Shown: one piece after another, positions 14,546-29,162 of the stretch
How positions within the stretch are numbered: the stretch's first letter is position 1
Layout: the number at the start of each line of letters is the position of its first letter
From: Gemmatimonadales bacterium
GTDB lineage: Bacteria; Gemmatimonadota; Gemmatimonadetes; Gemmatimonadales; GWC2-71-9
Direction: 5' to 3'
NCBI GenBank assembly: GCA_041615815.1
Contig: JBFJCP010000010.1
Coordinates: 2,856 to 66,855, forward strand
Length of the DNA: 64,000 nucleotides
Notes under the pieces: generated by a model
Told to the model about the DNA's origin: nothing
Databases searched by the model: none
The model's input: only the letters and a program-made list of their open reading frames with translations
Position numbers and translations under genes: made by a program

Positions 14546-14908
14546 ATGCGTGCACAAAAGTTTCGGCAGGCAGCCCTTGCGTACCTCCACGTAGGGATTC
14601 TGTACGAAGGTGCGGCCTTCGCGATGTGGAGACGTGGGCTGCTCCCGGCCGATCGCGGTCCAGTCTGGCTCTGGATGTTGTTGGGGGCGGGCATCGTGGC
14701 CGCGGTGGTCTGGGGGCTCTGGAAATGGCAAAACGTTTGGTTCGCACGCATCGTGTGGTTCATCCATGCCGCTCGGGTGCCGACGCTCATTGCCAGCGCC
14801 TTCTTCCCCGCGGTAGACCAGCGTCTGCCGCCCACGTTTTACGGAACCGCATTGCTTGTGGTGGTCATCAACCTCTGGATGTTGGCGCGGGCGGGATGGG
14901 ACGTGTAA
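14546..14908 (+). CDS. hypothetical small membrane protein (120 aa)
   Basis: ORF 14054..14908 trimmed to ATG 14546 (MRAQKFRQAALAYLHVGILYEG...). Three hydrophobic segments. A pyrimidine-rich leader cttcccctctc precedes the ATG. Confidence 0.5.
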   Translation: MRAQKFRQAALAYLHVGILYEGAAFAMWRRGLLPADRGPVWLWMLLGAGIVAAVVWGLWKWQNVWFARIVWFIHAARVPTLIASAFFPAVDQRLPPTFYGTALLVVVINLWMLARAGWDV

Positions 14909-14989: not shown

Positions 14990-15850
14990 GTGACGCGACT
15001 CAGGAGCTACAGGGACGTCGCCGGAGACGATCGTTCGGCGATGCTCGCGCAAGTGCAAGCGCAGCGGGCGCGGGTGAGGTCCCGCCTTGCAGCGGTGTCT
15101 CGCGTGGTGGGTGTGATGAGCGGCAAGGGTGGGGTGGGGAAGAGCTACGTGACGTCGGGTCTCGCCATTGCGGCGCAGCAGACGCGGGGCTGGACGGTTG
15201 GCGTGCTCGACGCGGATCTCCATGGACCCACCGTGGCACGACTTCTCGATGCCACAGGCCCCGTGAGGGTGAAGGGCGACGTGGTGCACCCAGCGGTGGG
15301 GCGCTCGGGGATCGCGGTTTTTTCGATGGATCTGTTATTGGCGGACGAGGCTCCGCTGCGCTGGCGGGACACCAGCGCGGAGCACGCCGTCTCCCGGGGC
15401 TTGCTGGAAGCCGGAGCCTTGCGAGAGTTCCTCGGTGATGTTGCCTGGGGGGAGTTGGATCTGCTCCTCGTGGATCTCCCTCCGGGGACGGCGTCGCTCA
15501 CCGACCTTGCGGGTTTGACGTCCCACCTGACTGGGGTTCTCGCCATCACGATCCCCAGCGAAGAGTCTCGACGCGCAGTAGCGCGGGCTCTCACGGCCGC
15601 CGCATCCTCCGGCGTCCGCGTTTTGGGGATCGTCGAGAACATGAGCGAGTACGTCTGCGGCGAGTGTGGCGCGCGCCAGGAGCTCTTTTCGGGTCAGGCT
15701 GGATCGCGGCTCGCGGAATCCACGGGCGCTCCGCTCATCGGGCGGATTCCCTTTTTCCCGGGCCTGCCGGATCAACGTGCCGAATCTCGACCCGTCCCAC
15801 CGCTTCCTGAGGATGTGGTCGCGCGGTTCTTCGAGGTGATCGAACGATGA
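14990..15850 (+). CDS. apbC: Mrp/NBP35 (ApbC) family Fe-S cluster carrier ATPase
   Basis: Deviant Walker A VMSGKGGVGKSYVTSGLA. LLLVDLPPGT. C-terminal CGECG cysteine pair typical of Mrp/ApbC. GTG start; ATG at codon 18 is an alternative. Confidence 0.85.
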   Translation: MTRLRSYRDVAGDDRSAMLAQVQAQRARVRSRLAAVSRVVGVMSGKGGVGKSYVTSGLAIAAQQTRGWTVGVLDADLHGPTVARLLDATGPVRVKGDVVHPAVGRSGIAVFSMDLLLADEAPLRWRDTSAEHAVSRGLLEAGALREFLGDVAWGELDLLLVDLPPGTASLTDLAGLTSHLTGVLAITIPSEESRRAVARALTAAASSGVRVLGIVENMSEYVCGECGARQELFSGQAGSRLAESTGAPLIGRIPFFPGLPDQRAESRPVPPLPEDVVARFFEVIER

Positions 15851-16302
15851 AGTTTCTATGTTTGGACTGCGACACGCAGATGGCGTTCGATGAGCGGAAT
15901 GTCCCGGGTGATGGCACATTTGCGGCAGCGTTCTCCTGCCCCACGTGCGGTCGGAAGATTGCCATGCTCGCCAACCCCATGGAGACGCAATTGGTGGACG
16001 CACTGGGTGTGCAGATCGGCGGCCGCACGTTGCGCGACCAGCCGTTGGAGCTCGTCCGCGGCAAGTTGGAGGGGCGGGACGATGCGTTCGTGGAGGACGG
16101 CGCCGAGCGGGCGGATGGACCCCCGGACGGGCGTCCCCTCTGGAGCGCGGAAGCCGACGAGCGGCTCGGACGTGTGCCCAGTTTCGTTCGGGGCATGGTG
16201 AAAAAGATCTACACCGAGTATGCGCTGGAACGCGGCATTGGGGAGATCACGCCGGCCGTCATGGACCGTGCACGCGTGGAGCTCGGGCTGGAGGGTATGT
16301 AG
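15847..16302 (+). CDS. Zn-ribbon (CxxC...CxxC) protein with C-terminal PCP_red-like domain
   Basis: ATGA overlap with mrp. N-terminus MKFLCLDCDTQ...FSCPTCGRK has two CxxC pairs. The C-terminus PLWSAEADERLGRVPSFVRGMVKKIYTEYALERGIGEITPAVMDRARVEL matches the fold motif of the BchB/ChlB C-terminal (PCP_red) family. Confidence 0.7.
   Translation: MKFLCLDCDTQMAFDERNVPGDGTFAAAFSCPTCGRKIAMLANPMETQLVDALGVQIGGRTLRDQPLELVRGKLEGRDDAFVEDGAERADGPPDGRPLWSAEADERLGRVPSFVRGMVKKIYTEYALERGIGEITPAVMDRARVELGLEGM
16135..16284 (+). other. PCP_red-like motif copy 1
   Basis: PLWSAEADERLGRVPSFVRGMVKKIYTEYALERGIGEITPAVMDRARVEL. Confidence 0.65.
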
Positions 16303-16545
16303 GTGAGCGACGGGGAAGAGCGACGCGTGTGGGATCTCCGGATCCGGATCGATCGGACGTTGTGTGTGGGCTTCGGCGACTGTCTGGAGGATGCCCCAGA
16401 GGCATTCTGCCTCGACGCGGAGGGGATCGCCATTTTCGCGACCCCAGAGGCGGTGGAGCGCGCGCGACTGTTGCGGGCCTGTGAGGCCTGCCCCGTGGAC
16501 GCTCTCACCGTGTGGGATGCCGCGGGCACGCAGCTGGTCCCTTGA
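16303..16545 (+). CDS. single-cluster ferredoxin (3Fe-4S/4Fe-4S type)
   Basis: GTG start directly abuts the upstream TAG. CVGFGDC...ACEACPVDAL matches the CxxxxxC...CP pattern of small Fer4_13/15-type ferredoxins. Confidence 0.75.
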   Translation: MSDGEERRVWDLRIRIDRTLCVGFGDCLEDAPEAFCLDAEGIAIFATPEAVERARLLRACEACPVDALTVWDAAGTQLVP

Positions 16546-16570
16546 CACGGGTAGCGGCAAGTCTCATACT
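16542..16570 (+). promoter_or_regulatory. sigma70-like internal promoter candidate (TTGACA-17-CATACT)
   Basis: Perfect -35 TTGACA (16542-16547) overlaps the ferredoxin stop. A 17-nt spacer and -10 CATACT (16565-16570) follow. This would give a ~140-nt leader before the USP gene. Confidence 0.3.
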
Positions 16571-16718
16571 CGCCACCGAGGTCGGCGTTGCGCGTACATT
16601 GCACTCGGCGCAGTGGTGCGCGGGATCACGCGGGGCCCTCCAGCGCCGTCGTCCAGTGATACAGCTGTACAAATCCTAGTTGGCCACCCGAACGACCAGC
16701 CTGGCCGGAGGCGGAGCC

Positions 16719-18707
16719 GTGCATCCTCTGTATAGGGAAGTGTTCGTCCCCGTGGACAATTCCCAGCATTCGGATTGGGCTGTCGAGCGTGCCATCGAGC
16801 TGTGCCGCCAGTCGGGCGGTCGGATCACCGGCAACCACGTATACGCCGCCCGCCTGCACGACGTTCGATTTCGCCAGCTCGAGACGGGATTGCCCGCGCA
16901 GTTTCAGACCCCAGAAGAAATCAAGCGCCAACGCAAAGTGCATGACAAGCTGATCGAGAAGGGGTTGCAGCTCATCTCCGATTCGTTCCTCGATCAAGTG
17001 GAAAAGCGGTGTCAGGGTGCCGGCGTCTCCCTCCGCCGTCAGCTCTTGGAGGGCATCAACTACGAAGAGATCGTCAACGAAGTGAACAGTGGTGAGGGGA
17101 CCTTGCCGAGTCTCATCGGCTTCGATCCCAACATCGCGGCAAATTATGACGGTGGGGACAAGGTGCGGAGTGACGTGCGGCTCGGTGCAGACGGACGCAT
17201 CGTGGCGGAGGACGAGGAGTTGGATGAGAAACTCGCCGGGTCTTCGGGTCGTCGTTATGACCTCGTGGTGATCGGCGCTCATGGGATCGGTCGCCAACCG
17301 TATTCCCAATTGGGTGGTGTGGTGGCGCGCGCCATCCGGGGTATCGAAAAAGACGTGCTGCTGGTTCGGGACGATGCATCTCTCAGGGGGGGACGGTTCA
17401 TGGTGTGTGTAGACGGATCGTCCTACAGTTATAAGGCCATGCGAAGCGCGTTGGAGTTGGCGCAGGAGTTCGGGGCGTCGCTGTACGTGTGCAGCGCGTT
17501 CGACGTCGAGTACCATCACGCCGTTTTTCACAATATCAAAGACGTGCTGTCGGTCCGCGCGTCGAAAGTGTTCAAGTTCGAAGAGCAGGAAGAACTGCAC
17601 AACAACATCATCGACAAGGGGCTGCTGAAACTCAGTCAGGCGAACATCAAACGCGCAGAGGTCATGGCGCAGGAGTTTCCCGATGTTCCACTGAAGAGTC
17701 AGATTCTGATCGGCAAGCCGTTTCAGGTGATCTTGCAGTGGGCCGAGGAGATTCAGCCCACGTTGCTGATCTACGCTCGTCATGGGGCCCATCGCATCGA
17801 GGGCACCGATCTGGGATCGCAGGCGGACAACCTCGTGCGCTTGGCGTCGTGTAACACGCTCGTGGTGGGCACGGTGGGCGTCCGCCCGGAGGAGATTCCC
17901 TGGATCGAAGAGGACGGGGAGGCATCACTCCCGTGGGCGCCGGAAGCCGAGGTCCGCATCCAACGGGTGCCGCCGTTTGCGCAGGGGATCGCGCGCAAGG
18001 CCGTCGAGGAGTTCGTCATGGAGCACGGGAGCGACTTCGTGACGAACCAATGGCTCGATCAAGCCATCGCGAAGCTCCTGCCGACACACATGCAGCTCAT
18101 CATGGGGATTGGCACGGCGGAGGAGATGGCTCGGGCCGAGCTCAAGGCGCAAGAGCAGATGGCCAAGACGGAGGTCCGGGGGAGCGAGGCGGATACCGAG
18201 GCGGCGGGTGACACGGTCCAAGTGAAGTGTCCCGTGACAGGGCACATGACGGTCCGAGCGCGGACGGCGGCGGATCCCATGGTATGGACCGTCGAGGCGT
18301 TCGACCGGTTGAAAGCGGTTCCGCTCATCGCGCGCCCACTAGCCCGAAACACGGTGGAACGGTTTGGACGAGACCATGGCTTCTGGCGGATCACGACGTT
18401 GGTCATGGATGAGAACAAGCAGGCGATGATCGAGGCTGACGAGTTCGATGCCGAAACGATGATGGGAATGTTTCGCGAGCTTCGGGCCAAGCAGATCCGT
18501 GCAGAAGCCGAGGGCGGCGATGCCCTCTCGCCCGAGATGCGGCGGTTCATCGAGGAGGCGAAGGCGGCCGGCGTCACTCGGTGTCCCATCCGGGATATCG
18601 AGGAGAAGATGTCGGATTGCCCGGTGGATTTTCGCGTCGCAACACCGGAAGAGGCTCGCGCAGCGGTGGAGCGGTTCATGGTTGAAGGAGAGACGGAGAC
18701 CGACTGA
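16719..18707 (+). CDS. tandem universal stress protein (USP) domains fused to two PCP_red-like domains
   Basis: Longest ORF starts at TTG 16680. GTG 16719 is preferred because GGAGGCGGAG lies just upstream and VHPLYREVFVPVDNSQHS is a typical USP N-terminus. Second USP: RFMVCVDGSSYSYKAMRSALELA...ARHGAHRIEGTDLGSQADNLVRLASCNTLVV. Two PCP_red-like motifs and a Cys-containing tail follow. Confidence 0.75.
   Translation: MHPLYREVFVPVDNSQHSDWAVERAIELCRQSGGRITGNHVYAARLHDVRFRQLETGLPAQFQTPEEIKRQRKVHDKLIEKGLQLISDSFLDQVEKRCQGAGVSLRRQLLEGINYEEIVNEVNSGEGTLPSLIGFDPNIAANYDGGDKVRSDVRLGADGRIVAEDEELDEKLAGSSGRRYDLVVIGAHGIGRQPYSQLGGVVARAIRGIEKDVLLVRDDASLRGGRFMVCVDGSSYSYKAMRSALELAQEFGASLYVCSAFDVEYHHAVFHNIKDVLSVRASKVFKFEEQEELHNNIIDKGLLKLSQANIKRAEVMAQEFPDVPLKSQILIGKPFQVILQWAEEIQPTLLIYARHGAHRIEGTDLGSQADNLVRLASCNTLVVGTVGVRPEEIPWIEEDGEASLPWAPEAEVRIQRVPPFAQGIARKAVEEFVMEHGSDFVTNQWLDQAIAKLLPTHMQLIMGIGTAEEMARAELKAQEQMAKTEVRGSEADTEAAGDTVQVKCPVTGHMTVRARTAADPMVWTVEAFDRLKAVPLIARPLARNTVERFGRDHGFWRITTLVMDENKQAMIEADEFDAETMMGMFRELRAKQIRAEAEGGDALSPEMRRFIEEAKAAGVTRCPIRDIEEKMSDCPVDFRVATPEEARAAVERFMVEGETETD
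17928..18077 (+). other. PCP_red-like motif copy 2
   Basis: LPWAPEAEVRIQRVPPFAQGIARKAVEEFVMEHGSDFVTNQWLDQAIAKL. Confidence 0.6.
18279..18428 (+). other. PCP_red-like motif copy 3
   Basis: MVWTVEAFDRLKAVPLIARPLARNTVERFGRDHGFWRITTLVMDENKQAM. Confidence 0.6.
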
Positions 18708-18709
18708 CC

Positions 18710-20044
18710 GTGGCCACCTCGCTCGCCTTCCTCGGCGAAGCGCCGGCCTCGACCGATTCTCAGGCGACGTATGTGCCTCATGTCGTTGCCTGGAATCTCA
18801 CGCGACGGTGCAACCTGCAGTGCGCACACTGTTACATCGCTGCGGGACCCAGCGAGGTCGCTGCGGACGAATTGCGGACCGGCGAGTGCCTCCGGATTAC
18901 CGAAGAGATACTCGCCCTCAATCCCTCACCGATGTTCATTCTCTCCGGCGGCGAGCCGCTCCTGCGCGACGATCTCACGACGATTGCCGCGTTTGCTGCA
19001 GACCGTGGCGCCACCGTAGTGGTTGGGACCAACGGCACCCTGCTTACCAACCAGCGGATCGACGCGCTTCGACGAGCGGGTGTCCAAGGGGTTGCGGTGA
19101 GCGTAGAGTCCTTGGATTCCACATACCACGATCGATTCCGGCGCGGGCATGGGTCCCTCGAGGCGACACTCGCCGCCGTCGAGCGGCTGGGACAGTGTCG
19201 GCTCGACTTCGTGGTGCAAACGACCGTGACACGGGGGAACCGAGCTGAGCTGGCCCGGCTCGTCGAGTGGGCAGCCAATGTTGGTGCGGTATCGTTCAAC
19301 GCGTACTTCCTCGTCTCGACGGGGCGCGGAGCACGGATGAGCGATTTGAGCCCCGAGGAATACGAAACCTGTCTCGGCGAGCTGGTGGACTTACACGTGC
19401 GGTTCTTGGGGCAGATGATGGTGCGGGCCAAGTGCGCACCGCATTTCATGCGTCTCGTGCACCAACGAGTGCCGACCTCGCCCATCCTCCACTACGGGAC
19501 CCGCTGCCCCTGCGGTGCGCAGTACTGTCGGGTCACTCCGGACGGCAAGCTCACGGCCTGCCCGTACTTGCCGCTGCCCGTTGGCGATCTGCGGCAATCG
19601 TCGTTCGCCGCCGTTTGGCACCACGCCCCCTTGCTTCAGGCGTTACGATCACAGCCGCCGGGTGGCAAGTGCGGAGCGTGCGAGTACCGGGTGCTGTGTG
19701 GGGGCTGCCGGGCGCGCGCGTTCGCCACCACCGACGACTACCTGGCGGCCGATCCGTCGTGTGCGTACGAACCTTCTGGCGAGATCGCAGTCATCGAGCG
19801 CGCCCAACCCGTGACGTACGGCATGTTGGTGGACCGCGAACTGGTGTGGACCGCCGAGGCGCTCGACCGCATCCGCCGAGTCCCCTCGTTTGTTCGCGGT
19901 GTCGTGACAAAGCGCGTCGAGGACTACGCACGGCGGCGCGGGCTGGAGAAGGTCACCGGCGCGCTGCTCCAGGATGTCCGACGGGAAATGCCCGTAGACT
20001 TTTCGAAGCGCAAACCGTTCTTCCTACAGCGCGATGACGACTGA
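18710..20044 (+). CDS. radical SAM/SPASM enzyme (NirJ/AhbD-like) with C-terminal PCP_red-like domain
   Basis: WNLTRRCNLQCAHCY is the CxxxCxxC radical SAM cluster. LSGGEPLLRDD. SPASM cysteines CPCGAQYCRVTPDGKLTACPY and GKCGACEYRVLCGGCRARA, the latter being the tail motif I associate with tetrapyrrole-modifying NirJ/AhbC/AhbD enzymes. GTG start 2 nt after the upstream stop. Confidence 0.85.
   Translation: MATSLAFLGEAPASTDSQATYVPHVVAWNLTRRCNLQCAHCYIAAGPSEVAADELRTGECLRITEEILALNPSPMFILSGGEPLLRDDLTTIAAFAADRGATVVVGTNGTLLTNQRIDALRRAGVQGVAVSVESLDSTYHDRFRRGHGSLEATLAAVERLGQCRLDFVVQTTVTRGNRAELARLVEWAANVGAVSFNAYFLVSTGRGARMSDLSPEEYETCLGELVDLHVRFLGQMMVRAKCAPHFMRLVHQRVPTSPILHYGTRCPCGAQYCRVTPDGKLTACPYLPLPVGDLRQSSFAAVWHHAPLLQALRSQPPGGKCGACEYRVLCGGCRARAFATTDDYLAADPSCAYEPSGEIAVIERAQPVTYGMLVDRELVWTAEALDRIRRVPSFVRGVVTKRVEDYARRRGLEKVTGALLQDVRREMPVDFSKRKPFFLQRDDD
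19841..19990 (+). other. PCP_red-like motif copy 4
   Basis: LVWTAEALDRIRRVPSFVRGVVTKRVEDYARRRGLEKVTGALLQDVRREM. Confidence 0.65.
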
Positions 20045-21752
20045 ACTCCTAGCACTGCTCCAGGCTGCAGCCGACACGAGCGGGGCGTACGGCGAGTTTC
20101 CACTGATCGGGGCTCGGGCGGCCGTTTGGATCGCCGCTGAGGTGCATCTCATGTTCGCGGCCTTCGTTCTCGGTGTCCCGATGTTCGCCGTGATCACCGA
20201 ACTGATCGGCATCGTGGGCAAGGACCCGAAGTACGACAAGCTCTCGAAGGAATTTACGCGGCTGCTGGTGTTCGCCTACAGTGCGACGGCGTTGTGGGGA
20301 GCGGTCCTGGTGTTCTTTCTCACCACGCTCTACCCGGCGTTCTGGCGGCACATGGCTGAGATCTTTGGCTTGTCGATGTGGATCTACGTGGGACTGTTCT
20401 TCGTCGAGTCGTTCACGCTCTACCTCTACTATTATGGTTGGGACCGTTGGAAGGCGGGCCGGGCGAAGTGGGGACATTGGGGACTCGGTCTCCTCCTCAA
20501 TGTCTGGGGCACCACCGTCATGTTCATCGCGAACGGATGGTTGACCTACATGATGTCTCCACCGGAGGGGGTCACCGTGGCCGGGCTCCCCCCGGAGGTT
20601 TCCCTGTGGAATGCGATCGCCAATGCTACCTGGATGCCGATCAACATTCATCGGCTGATTGCGAACGCCGTCTTCGGGGGCACCATCGTGGCTGCCTACG
20701 CCGGCTATCGGTTCCTCGTGGCGAAGACGGACGAAGAACGTGCGCATTACGATTGGATGGGATACGTCGGCAACTTCATCGCGATCGCGACGTTCATCGT
20801 GCTTCCCTTTGCCGGGTACTGGTTGGGGCGGGAGATCTACGAATACAACCAGCAGATGGGAATCACGATGATGGGCGGCTTCATGAGTTGGCTGTGGATC
20901 GTGCAAGCGGTTCTGATCGGGGTGCTGTTCCTTGCCGCCAACTACTACCTCTGGTTGGGCATGCAACGGATTCCCGGTGCCGAGCGGTTCGTGCCGTACA
21001 CCAAGTGGATGCTGTTGGTTTTGGTTGTGTGTTGGTTGGTGTGGGCCACGCCGCACACCATGATTGCCAACCGCCAGGAACTGGCGGCCATGGGGGGATC
21101 GCATCACCCCTTCCTGAGCGTGCTGGGTGTGATGAGCGCCAAGAACACAGCCGTCAACCTCATGATCCTCACGACGTTCCTCTCGTTCTTGATGTACCGC
21201 CGGGCCAACAAGCTCCCCACCGTGTCGTGGGCGAAGACGGGAACGCTCATCGAGGCGGCCATGTTCGTGCTCGCCGCGGGTGTGGTGATATTCTACGGCA
21301 TCCTCGGATACTTCGTGGAGGCCATCGTGCGGATCGGATTCAGCGTGTACCAGGTGGGGGCCGTGCTCGCCTGCATCATCGGTGTGACGGCCATCGACAT
21401 AGCGCTCCTCCGAAGGGCTGGGTCCCGCGGCGAGATTCGATGGGGGCAGATGCCGGAGCGGGCTCAATACGCATTGTTCACCCTTGCGGTCACTTTTACC
21501 TGGCTCATGGCCCTCATGGGGTTCGCGCGAAGCGGCATTCGGCAGCACTGGCACGTGTGGGAGGTGATGCGAGATACGAGCGCCGCCGCGGCCACACCCG
21601 CGCTCGGGTATGCGGCCAACATGATCAGCGTATGCGTCCTCGTGTTCCTCAGTCTCGTGGCGTTCATCTTCTGGCTCGGTGGCTTGGCGGAACGCGCTAC
21701 CACGCGGACCCCCGAGCCCCAGCCGGTCCTGCGTCCAGCGGGGGCGGAGTGA
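20034..21752 (+). CDS. cytochrome bd subunit I (CydA)-like membrane haem protein, no CydB partner
   Basis: 11-nt overlap with the radical SAM gene. CydA-like landmarks: TM1 His (AAEVHLMFAAF), FFVESFTLYLYYYGWDRW (compare FLESTFVGLFFFGWDR), FIANGWLTYM (compare ANGWMQ), INIHRLIANAVFGG (position of the haem b558 His). Divergent C-terminal half, about 12 TM segments. No cydB-like gene anywhere in the window. Confidence 0.8.
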   Translation: MTTELLALLQAAADTSGAYGEFPLIGARAAVWIAAEVHLMFAAFVLGVPMFAVITELIGIVGKDPKYDKLSKEFTRLLVFAYSATALWGAVLVFFLTTLYPAFWRHMAEIFGLSMWIYVGLFFVESFTLYLYYYGWDRWKAGRAKWGHWGLGLLLNVWGTTVMFIANGWLTYMMSPPEGVTVAGLPPEVSLWNAIANATWMPINIHRLIANAVFGGTIVAAYAGYRFLVAKTDEERAHYDWMGYVGNFIAIATFIVLPFAGYWLGREIYEYNQQMGITMMGGFMSWLWIVQAVLIGVLFLAANYYLWLGMQRIPGAERFVPYTKWMLLVLVVCWLVWATPHTMIANRQELAAMGGSHHPFLSVLGVMSAKNTAVNLMILTTFLSFLMYRRANKLPTVSWAKTGTLIEAAMFVLAAGVVIFYGILGYFVEAIVRIGFSVYQVGAVLACIIGVTAIDIALLRRAGSRGEIRWGQMPERAQYALFTLAVTFTWLMALMGFARSGIRQHWHVWEVMRDTSAAAATPALGYAANMISVCVLVFLSLVAFIFWLGGLAERATTRTPEPQPVLRPAGAE

Positions 21753-21759
21753 GGCGATC

Positions 21760-22551
21760 ATGCTGATGACCAATCTGAAAGTCGTGGTCGTGGCGGTGGC
21801 AGTGATCGGCTTCTACACCATGGTGGCGCATATCATCCCACAGCTCGAGTCCGAGGTCCCCGAACAGTTGGATCTCGGCGCTGATGTGACCACCGAGGAG
21901 CTGGTGGCGGCGGGAGAACGCATCTATAACGGTGCGGGGGGATGCACCGCCTGCCACGGCCTCGGTACCAGAGCGCCCAATCTGCTGACCGATCACGCCG
22001 GTCAAGGCCAAATTGGGGCGCGGTGCGGTGGCCGGGAGTCTGGGAAGGACTGTAAGGCATACTTGCACGAATCGATGGTGGAACCGGGTACCTATGTCGT
22101 CGAAGGGTTCGGCAACATCATGCCGGACATGCGTCGCCAGCTCACCGACGATCAGATCTGGACGGTGGTGGCCTACCTCCAGTCGCTTGGCGGCGAAGTG
22201 ACTGTCACCGGCGCGGATGTCCAGGCAGCATCGAGCGGTAGTGAGGCAGGCGGACCGGCGACGGCGGCTGCGCCACGGTCGACCACGAGCGATCCCCGAC
22301 AGCTGCTCACCGAGCATGCGTGCCTCGGATGTCATGCCATCGACGGTCAGGGCCCACCCATCGGCCCCTCCTTCGATGGTATGGGATCGCGCATCTCGGC
22401 CGACCGGATCCGGCGGGGCATCCTCGATCCAAATGTCGAGGTGGCGGCGGGGTTCGACCAGTTCGCCGGGATGATGCCGGCGACCTTCGGCGATCAGCTA
22501 TCTGCGGGCCAGCTCGAAGCAATCGTCCAATTCCTGGTGGCTCGGAAATGA
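21760..22551 (+). CDS. membrane-anchored dihaem cytochrome c
   Basis: ORF trimmed to ATG 21760 (MLMTNLKVVVVAVAVIGFYTMV is the TM anchor), with GAGG 7 nt upstream. Two CxxCH motifs: CTACH and CLGCH. Confidence 0.85.
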   Translation: MLMTNLKVVVVAVAVIGFYTMVAHIIPQLESEVPEQLDLGADVTTEELVAAGERIYNGAGGCTACHGLGTRAPNLLTDHAGQGQIGARCGGRESGKDCKAYLHESMVEPGTYVVEGFGNIMPDMRRQLTDDQIWTVVAYLQSLGGEVTVTGADVQAASSGSEAGGPATAAAPRSTTSDPRQLLTEHACLGCHAIDGQGPPIGPSFDGMGSRISADRIRRGILDPNVEVAAGFDQFAGMMPATFGDQLSAGQLEAIVQFLVARK

Positions 22552-23363
22552 GTGGGAAGATCGGTACCGTCCTGCGCCACCCGTTTTGGCAGGCCATCCT
22601 GCTGCTGGTTCTGGCATATGTCGTCTTCAAATACGGTATCGCGTATCTACCGCCGTTGTTCGGGATCGCCAGCGCGCCCGTGCCCAACAGTGTGCTCATC
22701 CAATTCATGCTGACGGCGCTCGTCGGGATCCTGATCTACGTCAGTGACAACGATGAGAAGTGGCGGAAGTTCAAGGAGCCCATCGTCGCGACGATGATCG
22801 ACACCGACAAGCGATGGCTTCGGGGCGGCCTATTGGTTCTGATCCCCGTCCTCGTGGGCTTCGTGACGTACGATCAGGCGCGGCCCAAGGTGTCGGCACC
22901 GGTCCAACTCCGTTCCATCCACCCGGCGCCGCCAAGCCAGATCACCTTCCGCGGTCAGCCGATGCAGCTCGCGGGATTGGAAAACCCGCTGCGCCGTTCG
23001 GGCCCGCTGGAGGAACACGCCCTCGAGGGACGGCGGGTCTACTATCAGAACTGTCTCGCGTGCCACGGCGATCTCCTGGATGGGGAGGGACACTACGCGC
23101 ATGGATTCAACCCCTTGCCGCTGGCGTTCGACGATCCCGGAACCATCGCGCAGCTCACCGAGAGCTTTGTGTTCTGGCGCATCGCCAAAGGCGGTCCCGG
23201 GCTCCCCCGCGAGGGAACCCCGTGGAATTCAGCCATGCCGGCCTGGGAGGACTTTCTGACAGAAGAGGAGATCTGGGCCGTCATCATCTTCCTGTACGAG
23301 CAGTCCGGATGGGAGCCCCGTACGTGGGAGGAAGCTGGGGAGGAAGGAGGCGCCCATGACTAG
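22548..23363 (+). CDS. polytopic membrane monohaem cytochrome c
   Basis: ATGA overlap with the upstream gene (MSGKIGTVLRHPFW...). Three TM segments precede a periplasmic domain with CLACH. Confidence 0.8.
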   Translation: MSGKIGTVLRHPFWQAILLLVLAYVVFKYGIAYLPPLFGIASAPVPNSVLIQFMLTALVGILIYVSDNDEKWRKFKEPIVATMIDTDKRWLRGGLLVLIPVLVGFVTYDQARPKVSAPVQLRSIHPAPPSQITFRGQPMQLAGLENPLRRSGPLEEHALEGRRVYYQNCLACHGDLLDGEGHYAHGFNPLPLAFDDPGTIAQLTESFVFWRIAKGGPGLPREGTPWNSAMPAWEDFLTEEEIWAVIIFLYEQSGWEPRTWEEAGEEGGAHD

Positions 23364-24936
23364 GGGGAATGGGAACGGCGGACGGTTGGAAGGGCTCCTG
23401 CTCGTCGTCGCTTTCTCCGGCTCATGGCTCTTTTATCCGGGCCCCCTGGTGGCTCAGGACCTGGAGCGCGGCAAAGTCGTGTACGACAAGTGGTGTGCGG
23501 GTTGCCATGGGGACGACGGCGCCGGACTGGGCGAGGCCGCGGCCTTCATGCTTCCCCGGCCGCGGGATTTCACTCGGGGTGACTACCAGATTCGCACGAC
23601 GGCCAGCGGGGAGCTTCCCACCGATGCCGACATCCGCCGAATGGTGGACGAAGGGATGCCCGGCAGCGCGATGCCGGGTTGGGAGCGGCGCTTGAGTGAG
23701 CAGGATCGCAACAACGTGGTGGCCTATATCAAGTCGTTTTCACGGTTCTTCGACGGAGCCGCACCGGAACCGGTCGATTTCGGGCGGGCGCCCCGGAGGA
23801 CGGATGAAGGGCTGGCAGAGGGCGAGCAAGTCTTCCGGGAGCTGGAGTGTTTCAAATGTCATGGAGATGCGGGACGTGGCGATGGACAATCTGCGCCTAC
23901 CCTCACCGATGACTGGGACTTCCCCATTCGCGCTGCGGACCTCACCAAGCCCTGGAACTTCAACGGTGGTGGCACGGCCGAACAGATCTTCCGCCGCTTC
24001 CGTACGGGGTTGAATGGGACCCCGATGCCGTCCTACAACGATGTTTTGGATGCCGGCATCGTGACCGAGGAGCAGTTGTGGCACCTCGCCCAATACGTTC
24101 GTTCGTTGGGGCCGGACGAGCCGACCCCGCGGATTCGGGACGTCGTGCGGGCGCAGCTGGCGGATGGAGCGCTCCCGTCGGGACCGGGAGACACGGCCTG
24201 GGCCGGTGTGGAGCAGTTTTACATTCCGCTCGTTGGGCAGATCATTGTGAAGCCGCGCTGGTTTGCACCCACGGTGGACGGACTCTGGGTGCAAGCCCTG
24301 CACGACGGCGATCAGCTAGCCATTCGCCTCACGTGGAGTGACCCGTCGGAGAGCCCCGACCCCGCGTGGCAAGAGTGGCTGGGGCGAGTCACGAGCACGA
24401 TGTCCGATGGGGACGGTGTGATGGCCGCCGAGCAGGGTGCCGATCGCGTGGTCGTGCAATTCCCGACCCGCCTGTCGGACGGGATGGAGCGGCCCTATTT
24501 TCTTGGGGGCTCGAACCGCAGCCCGGTCTACGTATGGCGCTGGACCAGCGATCCGGACCGGCTGGAGGAAGGTACGACCACCGGGCTTGGTGCCTTCGCG
24601 CCGCTGGCCGGCGGGACCGTTACCCATGCCGCGCGGCACGGTCAGGGGCAGTGGCAGATCCAACTGACGCGATCGCTCGTTCCGGCAGACTCGACGGTCC
24701 TGCGGTTCGACCGGGGCCAGCCCATCCCCGTGGCCTTCTTTGCCGCGGATGGCTCGAACGGGGAAGATTGGGTGCGTGGCTCCGTGAGTGCCTGGTATCA
24801 GATCTATCTCGATGTTCCCACCCCGGTTGCAGCGTATGTGGCGCCGATTGTGGCGATGCTCCTGACGGCTGCCTTGGGGATGGTCGTGATTGCGCGAGCT
24901 CAACAGCGCGGCCGACAGGCCGCCCAATCATCGTAG
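23356..24936 (+). CDS. dihaem cytochrome c fused to EB_dh (ethylbenzene-dehydrogenase gamma-like haem b) domain, C-terminal TM anchor
   Basis: 8-nt overlap with the upstream gene. CAGCH and CFKCH motifs. EB_dh-like region: LWVQALHDGDQLAIRLTWSD...VVVQFPTRLSDGMERPYFLGG...VYVWRW...PVAFFAADGSNGEDWVRGSVSAWYQIYL. C-terminal TM VAPIVAMLLTAALGMVVIA. Confidence 0.8.
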   Translation: MTRGNGNGGRLEGLLLVVAFSGSWLFYPGPLVAQDLERGKVVYDKWCAGCHGDDGAGLGEAAAFMLPRPRDFTRGDYQIRTTASGELPTDADIRRMVDEGMPGSAMPGWERRLSEQDRNNVVAYIKSFSRFFDGAAPEPVDFGRAPRRTDEGLAEGEQVFRELECFKCHGDAGRGDGQSAPTLTDDWDFPIRAADLTKPWNFNGGGTAEQIFRRFRTGLNGTPMPSYNDVLDAGIVTEEQLWHLAQYVRSLGPDEPTPRIRDVVRAQLADGALPSGPGDTAWAGVEQFYIPLVGQIIVKPRWFAPTVDGLWVQALHDGDQLAIRLTWSDPSESPDPAWQEWLGRVTSTMSDGDGVMAAEQGADRVVVQFPTRLSDGMERPYFLGGSNRSPVYVWRWTSDPDRLEEGTTTGLGAFAPLAGGTVTHAARHGQGQWQIQLTRSLVPADSTVLRFDRGQPIPVAFFAADGSNGEDWVRGSVSAWYQIYLDVPTPVAAYVAPIVAMLLTAALGMVVIARAQQRGRQAAQSS

Positions 24937-24945
24937 GGAGGAAGA

Positions 24946-25707
24946 ATGCGACGAGTACTCTTGTCGACGGTTTGTGTCCTGGTTGCGTGTGGTGGCGGTG
25001 AGCAGGCCGCCGATGGCGGTGGAGACGCGGCGGCGACTGCCATGGCCAGCGGACCGCGTGGTGATGGGGCCATTGCGGGGATGGTCATGTTCACTGGGAC
25101 GCCACCGGCGAACCCGACCATTGATATGTCCGAGGAGCCCGAGTGCGTGGCCAAGTACACTGGTTCACCAACCGATCCACGCGTGGTGGTCAGTAACGGC
25201 CATCTTGGCGGCGTGTTCGTCTATGTGAAGAGCGGGCTTCCGGCGGGAGCGAATTATACAGCGCCATCCTCACCGGTGATGCTGGATCAGGACGGCTGTC
25301 TGTACCACCCCCGTGTCTTTGGCGTCATGGCTGGCCAGCCCATCGAAATCAGCAACAGCGATCCCATGCTTCACAACATCAAGGCAGTCCCGGAGCAGAA
25401 CCGGGGGTTCAACATCAGCCAGCCTCGCGAGGGCATGACGACCACGCGGACGTTCAACACGCCCGAGGTCATGGTACCGTTTGAATGCAACGTTCACGGG
25501 TGGATGAACGCTTATGCGGGCGTCATGAGTCACCCCTTTTACGCAACGTCTGCGGAGAACGGATCCTTTTCGATTCAGGGGTTGCCTGCGGGGACCTACG
25601 AGCTCGAAGCGTGGCACGAGACGCTCGGGACCCAGACGCAGTCGGTCACGGTGCCCGAGACGGGGACCGTGAACGTCGAGTTCTCGTTCAGCGCATCGAC
25701 CTCGTAA
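24946..25707 (+). CDS. cupredoxin-like lipoprotein (putative type-1 Cu site) with carboxypeptidase-regulatory-like beta-sandwich
   Basis: Lipobox VLVACGG and RBS GGGAGGAAG. Candidate Cu ligands His143 (MLHNIK) plus C181-x2-H184-x2-M187 (FECNVHGWMNAY). C-terminal GSFSIQGLPAGTYELEAWHETLG. Confidence 0.65.
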   Translation: MRRVLLSTVCVLVACGGGEQAADGGGDAAATAMASGPRGDGAIAGMVMFTGTPPANPTIDMSEEPECVAKYTGSPTDPRVVVSNGHLGGVFVYVKSGLPAGANYTAPSSPVMLDQDGCLYHPRVFGVMAGQPIEISNSDPMLHNIKAVPEQNRGFNISQPREGMTTTRTFNTPEVMVPFECNVHGWMNAYAGVMSHPFYATSAENGSFSIQGLPAGTYELEAWHETLGTQTQSVTVPETGTVNVEFSFSASTS

Positions 25708-25722: not shown

Positions 25723-26409
25723 ATGCCATATGACTGGGGACTCCCCATCGCGGCGTCGACCTTCGCGGCGGACATCGACCGACTCTACTACATGATCTTG
25801 GTGATTACGGGCATCGCCTTCGTCATCGTGGAGGTGGCGATCGTCTGGTTTCTCATCAAGTACCGAGCACGCCCTGGTCGCAAGGCCTATTATACCCACG
25901 GTAGCGCCAAGGCAGAGGTCATTTGGACGGCCGTGCCCGCGGTAGTCGTCGTCGGATTGGGTATTCTCAGCGCGTCCGTATGGAGTCACATTCGTGGGCG
26001 GGACAGCGTTCCCCCCAATGCGTTGCCGATTGCGCTCGAGGCCAAGCAATTCGAGTGGAACGCGACGTATCCTGGTGCCGACGGGGAGCTAGGCACCGGC
26101 GACGATTTCACGATGCGGAATCTGCTGCAGATTCCGGTCAATCAGCCCGTCGTGGTTCACCTCACCTCGGAGGACGTGATTCATTCCTTCTTCGTACCCG
26201 AGTTCCGTGTCAAGCACGATGCGGTGCCGGGTATGGAGGCCCGAGTGTGGTTCGAGGCCACGATGACCGGGGAGTTTTCCATCGCTTGCGCCGAACTGTG
26301 CGGCTTGGGGCACTACCGGATGGCTGCTCGGGTCGTGGTACAAGACCAGGCCGAGTACGATCAATGGTTGGCCGAACAGGCCGCGAACCAAACCGTAGCT
26401 TCGCGTTAG
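25723..26409 (+). CDS. coxB: cytochrome c oxidase subunit II (no fused cytochrome c domain)
   Basis: RBS AAGGAGG. Two N-terminal TM segments. CuA site HSFFVPEF...CAELCGLGHYRM. Confidence 0.9.
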   Translation: MPYDWGLPIAASTFAADIDRLYYMILVITGIAFVIVEVAIVWFLIKYRARPGRKAYYTHGSAKAEVIWTAVPAVVVVGLGILSASVWSHIRGRDSVPPNALPIALEAKQFEWNATYPGADGELGTGDDFTMRNLLQIPVNQPVVVHLTSEDVIHSFFVPEFRVKHDAVPGMEARVWFEATMTGEFSIACAELCGLGHYRMAARVVVQDQAEYDQWLAEQAANQTVASR

Positions 26410-26416
26410 AGGACTC

Positions 26417-28171: not shown

Positions 28172-28181
28172 GGGAGGAGCG

Positions 28182-28862
28182 ATGGCACACGCAGCAGTGA
28201 TGCAGCCTCCGGCCTCGGCGGAGACCGGTGCGGGGGTTTATAACGAGAAGCTGGGGATGTGGGTCTTCTTGGGGTCGGAGGTCATGTTCTTCACGGCCCT
28301 CATCGGGTCGTACATCATCCTGCGCTTCGCGCAGCCGCAGGCGTGGGCAGCCCCCGGCCAGATTCTCAATATTCCGGTGACGGGCGTCAATACGTTTTTG
28401 CTGATCTGTAGCTCGGTCACCATGGTCAAGGCGTTTGCCGCCGCTCAGGACGGCGACCAGCGCATGTTGAAGGCCTGGCTGCTGGCAACGGTGCTCATCG
28501 GGGCGACGTTCGTGAGCATTCAGGTGTACGAGTATCTGGTGTTGGCGCACGAAGGATTCCTCCCGAGTGGCTATGTGGCGGGCAGTCATCTGGCCGAGGT
28601 CGCAGACGGTGGTGCGGCGTACAAGGGCGGTGCGGCCTTGCCCGAATCGGTGGGGTTGTACGGTTCCACGTTCTATACGATGACTTCCTTTCATGGCTTT
28701 CACGTTACCATGGGTGTGCTGTGCATGATCTTCGTGACGGTGAAGGCGTTTCGTGGCGGGTATACAGCGGAAGACCATCGAGGAGTCGAAGTCATTGGTT
28801 TGTATTGGCACTTCGTAGACTTGGTGTGGATCGTACTCTTTACCATCGTCTACCTGATCTGA
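28182..28862 (+). CDS. coxC: cytochrome c oxidase subunit III, second copy
   Basis: RBS GGGAGGAG. FYTMTSFHGFHVTMGVLCM and YWHFVDLVWIVLFT. Carries a ~35-aa insertion relative to the copy at 12883. Confidence 0.9.
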   Translation: MAHAAVMQPPASAETGAGVYNEKLGMWVFLGSEVMFFTALIGSYIILRFAQPQAWAAPGQILNIPVTGVNTFLLICSSVTMVKAFAAAQDGDQRMLKAWLLATVLIGATFVSIQVYEYLVLAHEGFLPSGYVAGSHLAEVADGGAAYKGGAALPESVGLYGSTFYTMTSFHGFHVTMGVLCMIFVTVKAFRGGYTAEDHRGVEVIGLYWHFVDLVWIVLFTIVYLI

Positions 28863-28880
28863 AACGAGCGGGGTCGAAAG

Positions 28881-29162
28881 ATGGAACAGAAGCCACATGC
28901 CAAGCATCCTCCGTACATGGGGATCTGGGCCGCGCTGGCCCTTCTGACCGTTCTGGAGATTGGCGTGGCGTTCTTCCAGAATTGGCCTAAGGAAGTGATC
29001 ATCCTCGTGCTCGTCGGTCTCGCGATCTGGAAGGCAGTGCTGGTGGCCATGTATTTCATGCACCTGCGCTTCGAGGGCAACCAGCTCCGAATCCTCGCCG
29101 TGGCACCGCTACCACTTGCCGTGATCCTCGTGATTGCGGTGATCACCGAGTATTTGTGGTAG
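28881..29162 (+). CDS. cytochrome c oxidase subunit IV (small bacterial type), second copy
   Basis: 93 aa with three TM segments. KAVLVAMYFMHLR parallels the copy at 13472. Confidence 0.75.
   Translation: MEQKPHAKHPPYMGIWAALALLTVLEIGVAFFQNWPKEVIILVLVGLAIWKAVLVAMYFMHLRFEGNQLRILAVAPLPLAVILVIAVITEYLW

Follow-up and report, generated by a model that had tools for sequence, protein, structure and literature searches.

PCP_red (PF08369) is the domain family found at the C-terminus of BchB/ChlB in DPOR and in the separately solved domains 2KRU and Asr4154 (2L09). Radical SAM enzymes of the AhbD type, including the Firmicute form NirJ2, modify tetrapyrroles, and the membrane subunit NarI receives its haem from HemW, a chaperone of the radical SAM type (PMC10114771). 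On the respiratory side, in operons of the OR-N2 type within the cytochrome bd-like family, an EbdC homologue accompanies several cytochromes c (Murali, Gennis and Hemp 2021, supplement).

The window, i.e., the whole 64-kb stretch of Gemmatimonadales DNA that was analysed, likewise encodes a CydA-like subunit, several cytochromes c and an EbdC homologue. Its operon also carries radical SAM (rSAM), USP and ferredoxin genes, which are unmentioned in the text and supplement of Murali et al., so that the accessory cassette is a new element; we found no published description of it. On balance, we think it probable that the cassette serves the cytoplasmic maturation and delivery of a haem cofactor for OR-N oxidases, with PCP_red as a three-helix adaptor. 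This gene set around a haem-type radical SAM enzyme is widely conserved in many environmental bacteria, often beside an unusual bd-like oxidase.

Layout of the operon

The features of the locus are as follows.

14990..15850, + strand: Mrp/NBP35 (NUBPL/ApbC-type) Fe-S cluster carrier ATPase (Pfam ParA/NUBPL, 185 bits)
15847..16302, + strand: Zn-ribbon and PCP_red protein, 151 aa (PCP_red copy 1 at 16135-16284)
16303..16545, + strand: small single-cluster ferredoxin, 80 aa (Pfam Fer4_13, Fer4_15, Fer4_19)
16719..18707, + strand: tandem-USP protein with two PCP_red domains, 662 aa (copy 2 at 17928-18077, copy 3 at 18279-18428)
18710..20044, + strand: AhbD-like radical SAM/SPASM protein with C-terminal PCP_red, 444 aa (copy 4 at 19841-19990)
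20034..21752, + strand: CydA-like membrane protein of the OR-N2-type cytochrome bd-like family (Cyt_bd_oxida_I, 78.7 bits)
21757..22551, + strand: dihaem c-type cytochrome (Cytochrom_C twice, two CxxCH, N-terminal TM segment)
22545..23363, + strand: membrane-anchored monohaem c-type cytochrome (Cytochrome_CBB3 / Cytochrom_C, one CxxCH)
23356..24936, + strand: dihaem cytochrome c fused to an EbdC-like haem b domain (Cytochrom_C twice, EB_dh 45 bits)
24946..25707, + strand: CarboxypepD_reg-like beta-sandwich protein (Pfam CarboxypepD_reg, 35.7 bits)
25723..30031, + strand: context, a second, A-family haem-copper oxidase operon (CoxII, CoxI, CoxIII, CoxIV) with CtaB haem O synthase

The genes from Mrp to the CydA-like gene are translationally coupled, with stops and starts that overlap or abut at 15847/15850, 16302/16303, 18707/18710 and 20034/20044, the last being the overlap of the CydA-like start with the rSAM stop. 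The start of the USP protein is given as in public gene calls (16719, 662 aa); its ORF opens at 16680 (675 aa). The Mrp protein combines a P-loop NUBPL/ParA domain with a C-terminal CxxC cluster-bridging motif, read as VCGECG, and matches the NCBIfam models MrpORP/ApbC below their equivalog cutoffs. None of the three PCP_red proteins has a TM-like segment, in agreement with the cytoplasmic location assigned to them in the earlier note.

In the CydA-like protein, which is 46-59% identical to proteobacterial and SAR324 homologues, Cyt_bd_oxida_I covers only the N-terminal part; a crude hydropathy scan gave at least 10 TM-like segments, some of them merged, and a His lies in helix 1 (AAEVHLMF); members of the OR-N2 family have 14 transmembrane helices, conserved His ligands and no Q-loop for quinol binding. 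The EbdC-like (ethylbenzene dehydrogenase gamma) protein reaches 83.5 bits on NCBIfam DMSO_red_II_gam, which is below the cutoff. The haem-copper oxidase genes further downstream match COX2, COX1 (502 bits), COX3, COX4_pro and UbiA in Pfam, and their arrangement is kept in metagenome loci. We lean towards a reading of the operon as two halves, in which the PCP_red proteins would form the cofactor-maturation half and the OR-N2-type bd-like / cytochrome c / EbdC-like complex the membrane half.

PCP_red domains and their partners

The earlier note had proposed that a PCP_red-like motif of about 50 aa occurs four times in three consecutive proteins. The domain and the count were borne out by hmmscan, as all three proteins exceed the PF08369 gathering score of 32.5 bits: the 151-aa protein (15847-16302) with 53.1 bits at aa 99-143, the 675-aa ORF (16680-18707) with 65.6 bits in two stretches and the 444-aa protein (18710-20044) with 47.7 bits at aa 380-423. 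The length was overstated, the Pfam domain being about 45 aa. The translations of the four segments are identical to those quoted at the time, and the copies align pairwise without gaps at 28-46% identity. An HMM built from the four copies found no fifth one in the six-frame translation of the 64-kb window (next best match E = 0.29).

In the AlphaFold model of the 151-aa protein, three strands stand ahead of the PCP_red domain, which consists of three helices with a pLDDT of about 90. The suggested structural likeness was found for copy 1, the model of which superposes on 2KRU with an rmsd of 1.5 A over 53 columns (43% identity), on the ChlB C-terminus (2YNM_D) with an rmsd of 1.4 A, and also on 2L09; copies 2 and 3 are predicted to be helical with a pLDDT of 65-88. 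The motif residues W, P, F, R and G are invariant in Gemmatimonadota alignments, and over 576 PCP_red copies from many phyla W is conserved in 99%, P14 in 94%, A6 in 93% and R18 in 91%. All four copies are genuine members of the PCP_red family. The notion that the repeats reflect chance similarity or low-complexity helical linkers retains next to no probability: nothing favours linkers, and it is ruled out by the Pfam scores, all above the gathering threshold, by the agreement of the predicted fold with a solved PCP_red domain and by the retention of the signature residues in 576 copies across phyla.

The window copies have the PF08369 family, the three-helix fold (as modelled for copy 1) and the signature W...P.F.R...E..A...G...IT in common with the C-terminus of BchB/ChlB, 2KRU and 2L09, and in BchB/ChlB, too, PCP_red is attached to a tetrapyrrole-working enzyme. 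Unlike in BchB/ChlB, the domain stands here without the BchN/BchB core, on a Zn ribbon, a tandem USP and a radical SAM enzyme, it forms arrays of up to six copies in this family, and the locus is respiratory, not photosynthetic. Pfam detected no nitrogenase-like (Oxidored_nitro) core in any of the three proteins, and only the last ~55-90 positions of the NCBIfam BchB models are matched, with 18-53 bits against cutoffs of 490-912.

The placement of PCP_red beside the tetrapyrrole in DPOR is not supported in the form given in the earlier note, because the trans-acting helix of BchB that contacts the pigment comprises residues 398-420 (PMC12022308) and thus lies upstream of residues 472-520, to which PF08369 aligns. 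The same offset speaks against PCP_red as a direct pigment carrier, the first option of the earlier note and an unlikely reading in which each domain would bind one haem or porphyrin and USP-(PCP_red)n proteins would act as a multi-site haem buffer or chaperone. Such a role would suit the PCP_red copy number, which varies from 1 to 6 among relatives, the partners, which are tetrapyrrole-related or plausible haem binders (AhbD-like rSAM, BchB, PNPOx-like domain), and the conserved Arg and Lys positions, which could pair with propionates; moreover, the C-terminal region of BchB reportedly forms a cover over the pigment cavity (PMC4071322). However, no His, Cys, Met or Tyr is conserved across the 576 copies, i.e., there is no conserved axial-ligand residue, a 45-residue three-helix bundle would offer little space for a porphyrin pocket, and the PDB titles of the stand-alone domains 2KRU and 2L09 mention no ligand.

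The partner domains had been recognized correctly. In the Zn-ribbon protein the cysteines of the CxxC...CxxC pattern (C5, C8, C31 and C34) show no variation among 38 homologues, and homologues of this protein are named 'PCP reductase family protein' at NCBI; in the USP protein Pfam Usp scores 111 bits in two stretches; and the third protein matches Radical_SAM, SPASM and PCP_red in Pfam. Among relatives, the Zn-ribbon-PCP unit occurs as rubredoxin-like inserts between PCP copies within the USP protein, and a PNPOx-like-PCP unit is a separate gene in some lineages and fused to the USP protein in others.

The USP-PCP protein is about 80% identical across Gemmatimonadota, and its homologues (E<=1e-30) fall into 252 clusters at 50% identity. 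The modelled N-terminal 400 aa fold like the tandem USPs Rv2623 and TTHA0350 (Foldseek 3CIS, 3AB8, 5CB0, E about 1e-12), a fold also common to UspE, and the nucleotide motif of these proteins is largely preserved in the consensus of the family, the ATP motif G-x2-G-x9-G-(S/T) being retained across phyla for both USP domains. Unlike these tandem USPs, the window protein has a long insertion in USP1, a C-terminal PCP_red array and its own set of strongly conserved motifs rich in His and Arg. Its ATP motif is degraded, reading G-x2-G-x9-G-G in USP1 and A-x2-G-x9-G-S, with the first Gly gone, in USP2. Three invariant Cys-Pro pairs flank PCP_red copy 3. The full-length model, with a pTM of only 0.53 and low-confidence linkers, gives no basis for domain packing.

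The AhbD-like radical SAM enzyme

On NCBIfam models the window enzyme scores 289.6 bits for AhbD (TIGR04545) and 285 for NirJ2, against 153 for AhbC and 99 for PqqE, and falls short of the equivalog cutoffs of AhbD and NirJ2, both 500 bits. Its homologues from other phyla reach 309-320 bits on AhbD/NirJ2 (gamma-proteobacterial and Nitrospira ones 309-311 on AhbD), and the family scores 150-176 bits on AhbC/NirJ and about 100-140 bits or less on peptide maturases. The CX3CX2C motif reads CNLQCAHC at aa 34, and CX2CX5CX2CX17C, the reported auxiliary-cluster motif of AhbD (PMC10114771), reads CGACEYRVLCGGC-x17-C at aa 321 and is retained in all 59 of 59 family members. A gene for a HemY-family porphyrinogen oxidase lies directly 3' of the rSAM gene in 17 proteobacterial loci; at locus L007 the HemY-family gene (TIGR00562, 252.6 bits against a cutoff of 97.85) begins at the rSAM stop.

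The tetrapyrrole connection drawn in the earlier note is upheld by the AhbD/NirJ2 scores, the fully retained AhbD motif and the HemY neighbour. Judged by its sequence, the enzyme is a member of the tetrapyrrole-modifying AhbD/NirJ clade with the AhbD cluster motifs; AhbD and NirJ2 are its best-scoring families, and both cysteine motifs are identical to theirs. Unlike AhbD/NirJ2, this family carries one to three extra C-terminal PCP_red domains, has no AhbA/B/C neighbours and occurs in Nitrospirota, Gemmatimonadota and proteobacteria beside oxidase or HemY genes, and neither AhbA/B/C nor a coproporphyrin-pathway set was found within the 64-kb window. Because the family scores about 290-320 bits (the window enzyme 290) against the cutoff of 500, the reaction may differ from that of AhbD.

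In SPASM enzymes the substrate is often a peptide, and this frequent peptide modification would agree with a regulatory module, in which adenine nucleotides would be sensed by the tandem USP, the oxidase or its assembly would be turned on and off through PCP_red docking and the rSAM enzyme would act on a protein subunit instead of a tetrapyrrole. The resemblance of the tandem-USP fold to the ATP-binding Rv2623 and TTHA0350, the G-x2-G-x9-G-S motifs retained in the family consensus and the sensor kinase and sigma-54 regulator genes downstream in proteobacterial loci point the same way. We nevertheless regard this reading as very improbable, given that the rSAM enzyme is much nearer to AhbD/NirJ2 than to any peptide maturase, that a HemY-family gene is its neighbour in proteobacterial loci, that no precursor-peptide gene was noticed and that the ATP motif of the window protein is degraded in both USP domains.

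Conservation of the cassette and its proposed role

The pair of USP-(PCP_red)n and rSAM-(PCP_red)n proteins gave at least 586 matches from about ten phyla in one-genome-per-species contigs. Of 77 assessable loci from many phyla, 66 have the two genes side by side, including 43/43 loci in Nitrospirota and 23/24 other assessable loci. A CydA-like gene is present in 26 of 80 cassette loci, namely in 10/10 loci of the Dormibacterota/Chloroflexota/Binatus type and in 16/27 of proteobacteria, SAR324, Myxococcota and Fibrobacteria; within 10 kb of the pair it was found in 0/43 Nitrospirota loci. In the reciprocal search from the oxidase (loci with >=71% identity), an automated criterion placed rSAM-PCP directly upstream in 38/42 loci, and of the four remaining ones L115 reflects an ORF-boundary effect; USP-PCP was present in 29/29 loci with sufficient upstream sequence. 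Some OR-N2 homologues at about 60% identity have no cassette nearby (L159). Together with the Nitrospirota loci, this makes the oxidase link frequent, not obligatory in gene order. Nine of the 11 phyla with the cassette are OR-N-positive in the table of Murali et al.

The earlier note had tentatively joined the three PCP_red proteins with Mrp and ferredoxin into one machine. That the three proteins act together is supported by the coupled genes, the adjacency of the pair and the fused Zn-ribbon-PCP and PNPOx-like-PCP units; Mrp and ferredoxin do not belong to the core. The Mrp gene lies upstream in 23/24 Gemmatimonadota-type metagenome loci and in L023, and is absent from the loci of other phyla, and ferredoxin lies upstream in 24/24 Gemmatimonadota-type loci. 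The two are part of the set in Gemmatimonadota-type loci and L023 only, and are thus lineage-specific helpers.

A rather unlikely alternative, which has several points in its favour, is that rSAM-PCP is a housekeeping coprohaem decarboxylase of the AhbD type, working at low oxygen in the coproporphyrin-dependent pathway. The proximity of the oxidase would then stem from co-regulated haem demand and low-oxygen respiration, PCP_red would be a substrate lid and the USP protein a regulator. The AhbD-like scores and motif, the HemY/CgoX-family neighbour, the position of the Nitrospirota pair away from oxidase genes, the MetK and AhcY neighbours in some Nitrospirales and the occurrence of AhbD in coproporphyrin-pathway organisms without other Ahb enzymes (PMC13564367) would all be expected. 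On the other hand, the scores are far under the AhbD equivalog cutoff, PCP_red arrays and fusions are not among the features of AhbD enzymes described in the reviews consulted, and the cassette is present in proteobacteria, which are reported to be without AhbD/HemQ because of their protoporphyrin route (PMC5095920). Moreover, the rSAM stop overlaps the oxidase start in the window, and ten loci keep USP-PCP beside OR-N1/N5-type oxidase genes with no adjacent rSAM gene. In Dormibacterota-type loci, this lack of a neighbouring rSAM gene where USP-PCP adjoins the oxidase genes also weighs against the maturation and delivery role preferred here.

For maturation and delivery of an oxidase cofactor, the rSAM enzyme would use SAM, without O2, to modify side chains of an iron tetrapyrrole. 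Its most likely reaction would be that of AhbD, in which the propionates of coprohaem are oxidatively decarboxylated to vinyls; the product would be haem b or a near relative of it. In the Gemmatimonadota version the adjacent ferredoxin could handle the electrons and Mrp could load the [4Fe-4S] clusters. In BchB/ChlB, PCP_red appears as the extreme C-terminal module after an arm that reaches into the other half of the enzyme. By analogy, the domain may tether the rSAM enzyme, the putative nucleotide-binding tandem-USP scaffold and the small Zn-ribbon or PNPOx-like proteins to each other or to a common receptor, and a reactive haem intermediate could then be handed between the proteins and, on the cytoplasmic side of the membrane, reach the subunits of the oxidase. 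The variable number of copies would fit a multivalent docking or hand-off array. HemW, which is descended from radical SAM enzymes, is a cytoplasmic Fe-S protein that passes haem to a membrane respiratory subunit, the role proposed here for the cassette. In contrast to the cassette enzyme, it is related to CgdH/HemN, not to SPASM enzymes, and has no PCP_red or USP partners; the likeness is one of functional role alone, and no homology is claimed.

The homologue of the CarboxypepD_reg-like protein moves with the cluster, lying downstream of the cytochromes in Gemmatimonadota-type loci and, in 12 proteobacterial and other loci, immediately ahead of USP-PCP.

PCP_red domains and their gene string in the window

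The four PCP_red-like motifs that the earlier note had reported from three consecutive proteins stand in the translations as written, and a Pfam profile search recognised PCP_red (PF08369) in all three ORFs on the + strand, with 53.1 bits at 15847-16302, 65.6 bits over two stretches at 16680-18707 and 47.7 bits at 18710-20044, each exceeding the Pfam gathering threshold of 32.5 bits. The four segments align without gaps at 28-46% pairwise identity, and a profile built from them found no fifth copy in the six-frame translation of the window (next match E = 0.29). In the model of the first protein the PCP_red part forms three helices (pLDDT ~90), and it superposes on the solved 2KRU (rmsd 1.5 Å, 43% identity), on 2L09 (Asr4154) and, at an rmsd of 1.4 Å, on the C-terminus of ChlB in 2YNM. 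The threshold-passing scores together with these superpositions exclude chance similarity and low-complexity linkers as the origin of the repeats. All three proteins lack a hydrophobic segment.

The partner domains, namely a zinc ribbon, two USP domains and a radical SAM/SPASM enzyme, were also described correctly, as judged by Pfam, conservation and fold match. All four cysteines of the CxxC...CxxC ribbon are invariant (n = 38 homologues), and the model of the protein with two USP domains detected by Pfam fits the tandem USPs Rv2623, TTHA0350 and UspE. The USP core and the PCP domains of this protein are predicted to fold, the linkers being uncertain in the full-length model (pTM 0.53). Such a core would also suit a USP-based regulatory device, an improbable rival to the scaffold function that we propose below. 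The string from Mrp to the CarboxypepD_reg-like gene is tightly packed according to coordinates and domain matches, and two complete A-family haem-copper oxidase operons flank it:

9700-13786: first A-family operon, CoxII with a cytochrome c domain
13865-14425, - strand: small predicted membrane protein
14546-14908, + strand: small predicted membrane protein
14990-15850, + strand: Mrp/NBP35, stop overlapping the start of the Zn-ribbon-PCP gene
15847-16302, + strand: Zn-ribbon-PCP, zinc ribbon and PCP_red
From the base after the Zn-ribbon-PCP stop: small ferredoxin, then a 174-nt gap before USP-PCP
16680-18707, + strand: USP-PCP, tandem USP and two PCP_red copies; the ORF opens at 16680, the start in public gene calls is 16719
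18710-20044, + strand: rSAM-PCP, radical SAM/SPASM enzyme with PCP_red, start 3 nt past the USP-PCP stop
Start overlapping the rSAM-PCP stop: CydA-like membrane protein
Next, in order: dihaem cytochrome c; monohaem cytochrome c; dihaem cytochrome c fused to an EbdC-like haem b domain
Last in the string, past the cytochromes: CarboxypepD_reg-like protein
25723-30031: second A-family operon, CtaB haem O synthase on its 3' side

The whole island, comprising both cox operons and the bd-like oxidase operon, is kept in about 40 metagenome loci. Several cytochromes c and an EbdC homologue are typical of OR-N2-type bd-like oxidase operons, and the gene content of the string agrees with this published arrangement (Murali, Gennis and Hemp supplement, bioRxiv 10.1101/2021.01.16.426971); neither the text nor the supplement of that work mentions the radical SAM, USP or ferredoxin genes. 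The two small membrane proteins between the first cox operon and Mrp have no family match and are called as genes in public assemblies. For the 174-nt gap between ferredoxin and USP-PCP, Rfam gave no RNA element or riboswitch, and promoter and terminator scans of the region performed no better than on shuffled sequence; a sigma-70-like promoter match before the USP-PCP gene (16542-16570, 10/12 positions) was likewise not above shuffled expectation.

Spread of the cassette and its oxidase neighbours

Nitrospira and Nitrospina presumably use OR-N bd-like oxidases as their main terminal oxidases, and the same enzyme group is found in sulfur-oxidising symbionts, Gemmatimonadota and Dormibacterota. 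The core of the cassette is the USP-PCP/rSAM-PCP gene pair, and it is widespread. USP-PCP is ~80% identical across many Gemmatimonadota metagenome bins, and an exhaustive search of 50%-identity representatives returned 252 clusters at E <= 1e-30, among them full-length relatives of 36-46% identity. Scanning one genome per species gave at least 586 matches, of which 80 loci were kept, and on these the window-derived profiles were mapped and all neighbouring genes clustered. They belong to Nitrospirota, Nitrospinia, SAR324, Gallionellales, Nitrosomonadales, Parvularculaceae, Nannocystaceae, Fibrobacteria, Dormibacterota, Chloroflexota, Binatus and Actinomycetes, as well as to sulfur-oxidising Gammaproteobacteria (Thiodiazotropha, Sedimenticola, a tubeworm endosymbiont).

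In Nitrospirota, rSAM-PCP lies directly 3' of USP-PCP in 43/43 loci, and no CydA-like gene was found within 10 kb of the pair. The Dormibacterota/Chloroflexota/Binatus/Actinomycetes type shows a CydA-like gene in 10/10 loci and rSAM adjacent to USP-PCP in 0/10; most of these loci also have an ABC-2 transporter after USP-PCP, a bc-type cytochrome b and a second CydA-like gene, which fits the published OR-N1/N5 gene context (Murali, Gennis and Hemp supplement). Outside these two groups, rSAM-PCP is adjacent in 23 of the 24 assessable loci, and 16 of 27 contain a CydA-like gene. Nine of the 11 cassette-carrying phyla are OR-N-positive in the published table, and the two remaining, SAR324 and Fibrobacterota, have a CydA-like gene within the recovered cassette loci.

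The reciprocal search of metagenomes from the oxidase, which returned mostly close, Gemmatimonadota-like relatives and therefore tested the link within that clade only, placed rSAM-PCP directly upstream in 38/42 loci by an automated criterion, together with USP-PCP (29/29), ferredoxin (24/24), Zn-ribbon-PCP (23/24) and Mrp (23/24). Of the four misses, the one inspected (L115) is visibly an ORF-boundary effect. These data show that the set is conserved and, by gene order, co-transcribed, and that OR-N oxidase genes and HemY are frequently adjacent to the cassette. A small number of oxidase homologues, about 60% identical, have no cassette nearby: L159 (Ga0194128_10000051) contains an OR-N2-type operon (~63% identity) in which the cytochromes and the cox operon downstream are the same, and neither an rSAM nor a USP-PCP gene lies in the 10 kb upstream. 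In L158, rSAM-PCP is located 5 kb upstream of the oxidase on the opposite strand.

A haem-type radical SAM enzyme and the PCP_red unit

The top NCBIfam matches of rSAM-PCP were, at 289.6 bits, the haem b synthase AhbD and, at 285 bits, its Firmicute form NirJ2, followed by AhbC, NirJ and NirJ1 (147-176 bits) and by peptide maturases at about 100 bits or less; homologues of a gammaproteobacterium and a Nitrospira gave the same pattern at 309-320 bits. Since all these scores lie below the 500-bit equivalog cutoffs of AhbD and NirJ2, rSAM-PCP is not assigned as AhbD. All 59 of 59 family members carry CX3CX2C and the exact CX2CX5CX2CX17C, the auxiliary-cluster motif of AhbD in Layer's review (PMC10114771), so that the enzyme shares this motif with AhbD although it stays under the equivalog cutoff. 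Judged by its sequence, rSAM-PCP is a haem-type, AhbD-like radical SAM enzyme; we found no solved structure of an AhbD/NirJ-type enzyme. The common motif would also agree with a rival explanation, a housekeeping AhbD for haem synthesis at low oxygen, which is less likely in view of the sub-cutoff scores and of the overlap of the rSAM-PCP stop with the oxidase start in the window. In 17 proteobacterial loci, neighbour-gene clustering placed a HemY/PgoX/CgoX-family gene directly 3' of rSAM-PCP, and in L007:14199-15635 its start coincides with the rSAM stop (TIGR00562 252.6 bits, cutoff 97.85). This pairing of an AhbD-like enzyme with a HemY-like oxidase stands out, since proteobacteria using the classical pathway are reported to lack AhbD and HemQ for the most part (PMC5095920).

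An iterated profile detected 576 PCP_red copies in 235 proteins, with 2-6 copies per USP-family protein in the kept loci (1-6 among representatives) and one or three in the rSAM family. Relatives of USP-PCP carry rubredoxin-like Zn domains between PCP copies, so that what the window encodes as a separate Zn-ribbon-PCP gene is elsewhere built into the USP protein. Three invariant Cys-Pro pairs (Cys504, Cys622 and Cys634 in 662-aa numbering; window about 18228, 18582 and 18618) flank PCP_red copy 3 of the window USP-PCP at the positions of these rubredoxin-like domains and could together make up a split metal site; around the first pair a small beta-sheet is predicted (pLDDT about 80). A PNPOx-like domain (about 230 aa; Pfam PNPOx_N matches weak and sub-threshold) with PCP_red behind it forms a gene of its own in SAR324 and a myxobacterium and is fused to the USP-PCP N-terminus in a Fibrobacteria locus and five representative proteins (L005:8995-9921, L014:9039-9974, L012:8911-12297; P0267, P0279, P0285, P0321, P0350); it is absent from the window. 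Fusions and operon structure support the PCP_red proteins as one functional unit, and with it this part of the single machine postulated in the earlier note, whereas Mrp and ferredoxin, also counted in it, occur only in Gemmatimonadota-type loci and L023, and would be a lineage-specific support (cluster loading, electron transfer) for a radical SAM enzyme with three clusters. The same distribution of Mrp led us to reject, as a general function of PCP_red, that it docks the Mrp ATPase in the way BchNB docks BchL.

The domain had been placed next to the pigment in dark protochlorophyllide reductase. The publications consulted do not show this: the BchB helix contacting Pchlide in trans comprises residues 398-420 in a 2025 cryo-EM study (PMC12022308), while PF08369 aligns to BchB 472-520 and ChlB 457-509, the last three-helix module past that arm. 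Conserved positions across the 576 copies are W2, A6, R9, P14, F16, R18, K/R22, E26, A29, G33, I/V37 and T/S38, and no conserved His, Cys, Met or Tyr offers a candidate iron ligand, which speaks against the less likely rival explanation of PCP_red as a direct haem carrier. Because the Pchlide-contacting helix is outside PF08369 and such residues are missing, we prefer to read PCP_red not as a pigment pocket but as a module for docking or clasping that is used around tetrapyrrole enzymes.

With PCP_red as such a docking module, the mechanism that we largely infer is that rSAM could perform an oxygen-independent propionate-to-vinyl (or related) change on an iron tetrapyrrole, ferredoxin could serve reductive SAM cleavage and/or take up the electron released in the AhbD mechanism (PMC10114771), and Mrp could load the rSAM clusters. 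The USP-(PCP_red)n scaffold with Zn-ribbon-PCP or PNPOx-PCP adaptors would hold enzyme and product and deliver haem to the oxidase subunits, functionally resembling HemW, which delivers haem to NarI (PMC10114771). We consider it a rather unlikely extension that OR-N oxidases need a dedicated O2-independent haem branch. In such a branch the product of the AhbD-like enzyme, joined in proteobacteria by a HemY-type oxidase, would be haem b or a non-canonical haem, its delivery would fall to a chaperone with a PCP_red array on the nucleotide-binding USP scaffold, and PCP_red would be a general tetrapyrrole hand-off module; if true, this module would be common to chlorophyll and respiratory-haem assembly.

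The domain call is already in public annotation, where the homologues go under the NCBI name 'PCP reductase family protein'; what appears to be new is the system, as a variant within the known field of tetrapyrrole radical SAM maturation and haem chaperoning. Our literature search, thin on subscription journals, found no report of PCP_red arrays on tandem USPs and a PCP_red-bearing AhbD-like enzyme travelling with OR-N oxidases. The cassette gives the orphan PCP_red domain a first context outside chlorophyll synthesis, and it is relevant to the fields of nitrite-oxidiser terminal oxidases and haem biosynthesis. Key nitrite oxidisers appear to respire O2 via OR-N bd-like oxidases, and for the cofactors and assembly of these enzymes the cassette is a concrete handle: it names genes to co-express for heterologous oxidase production and predicts the need for a specific haem-modifying step, and Zn-ribbon-PCP and isolated PCP_red domains are small soluble proteins suited to haem- and partner-binding tests.

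Lineage-specific neighbouring genes

In L017:12504-19851 and other Dormibacterota/Chloroflexota loci, where a radical SAM gene is absent, the genes after USP-PCP (5 copies) are those for an ABC ATPase, in most cases an ABC-2 permease, and then the oxidase genes in the order CydA-like, bc-type cytochrome b, second CydA-like. Beyond the HemY-family gene, the proteobacterial loci continue with a protein of 112 aa, which is conserved, and with genes for a PAS sensor kinase and a sigma-54 regulator. PBS-lyase-type repeats occur in the HEAT-repeat proteins (750-825 aa) that adjoin the cassette in 11 loci of Gammaproteobacteria and SAR324, and the weak CpcE/NblB similarity of L007:6506-8983 and L005:12367-14640 is a hint that, like the weak tetrapyrrole hint from the PNPOx-like domain, we did not count as evidence.

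A small multi-pass DUF4149/CopD-type membrane protein lies 3' of rSAM-PCP in 28 Nitrospira loci (L075:13659-14168) and in L023:13779-14285. The L023 protein matches UPF0093, the HemJ protoporphyrinogen oxidase family, marginally (E = 0.004), and the matches of the Nitrospira protein (DUF4149 25 bits; CopD) are too weak to claim a HemJ-type porphyrinogen oxidase. In L052:6091-8796 and about 10 Nitrospirales loci, genes for MetK (S-adenosylmethionine synthetase) and AhcY (S-adenosylhomocysteine hydrolase), recognised by motifs only and not counted as evidence, adjoin the USP-PCP/rSAM-PCP pair. In L075:6693-9563 and about 27 other Nitrospira loci, a UbiE/COQ5 methyltransferase and a B12-binding radical SAM protein, with a best match to the cyanobacterial slr0320 family at 445 bits, below its cutoff, are located immediately 5' of USP-PCP.
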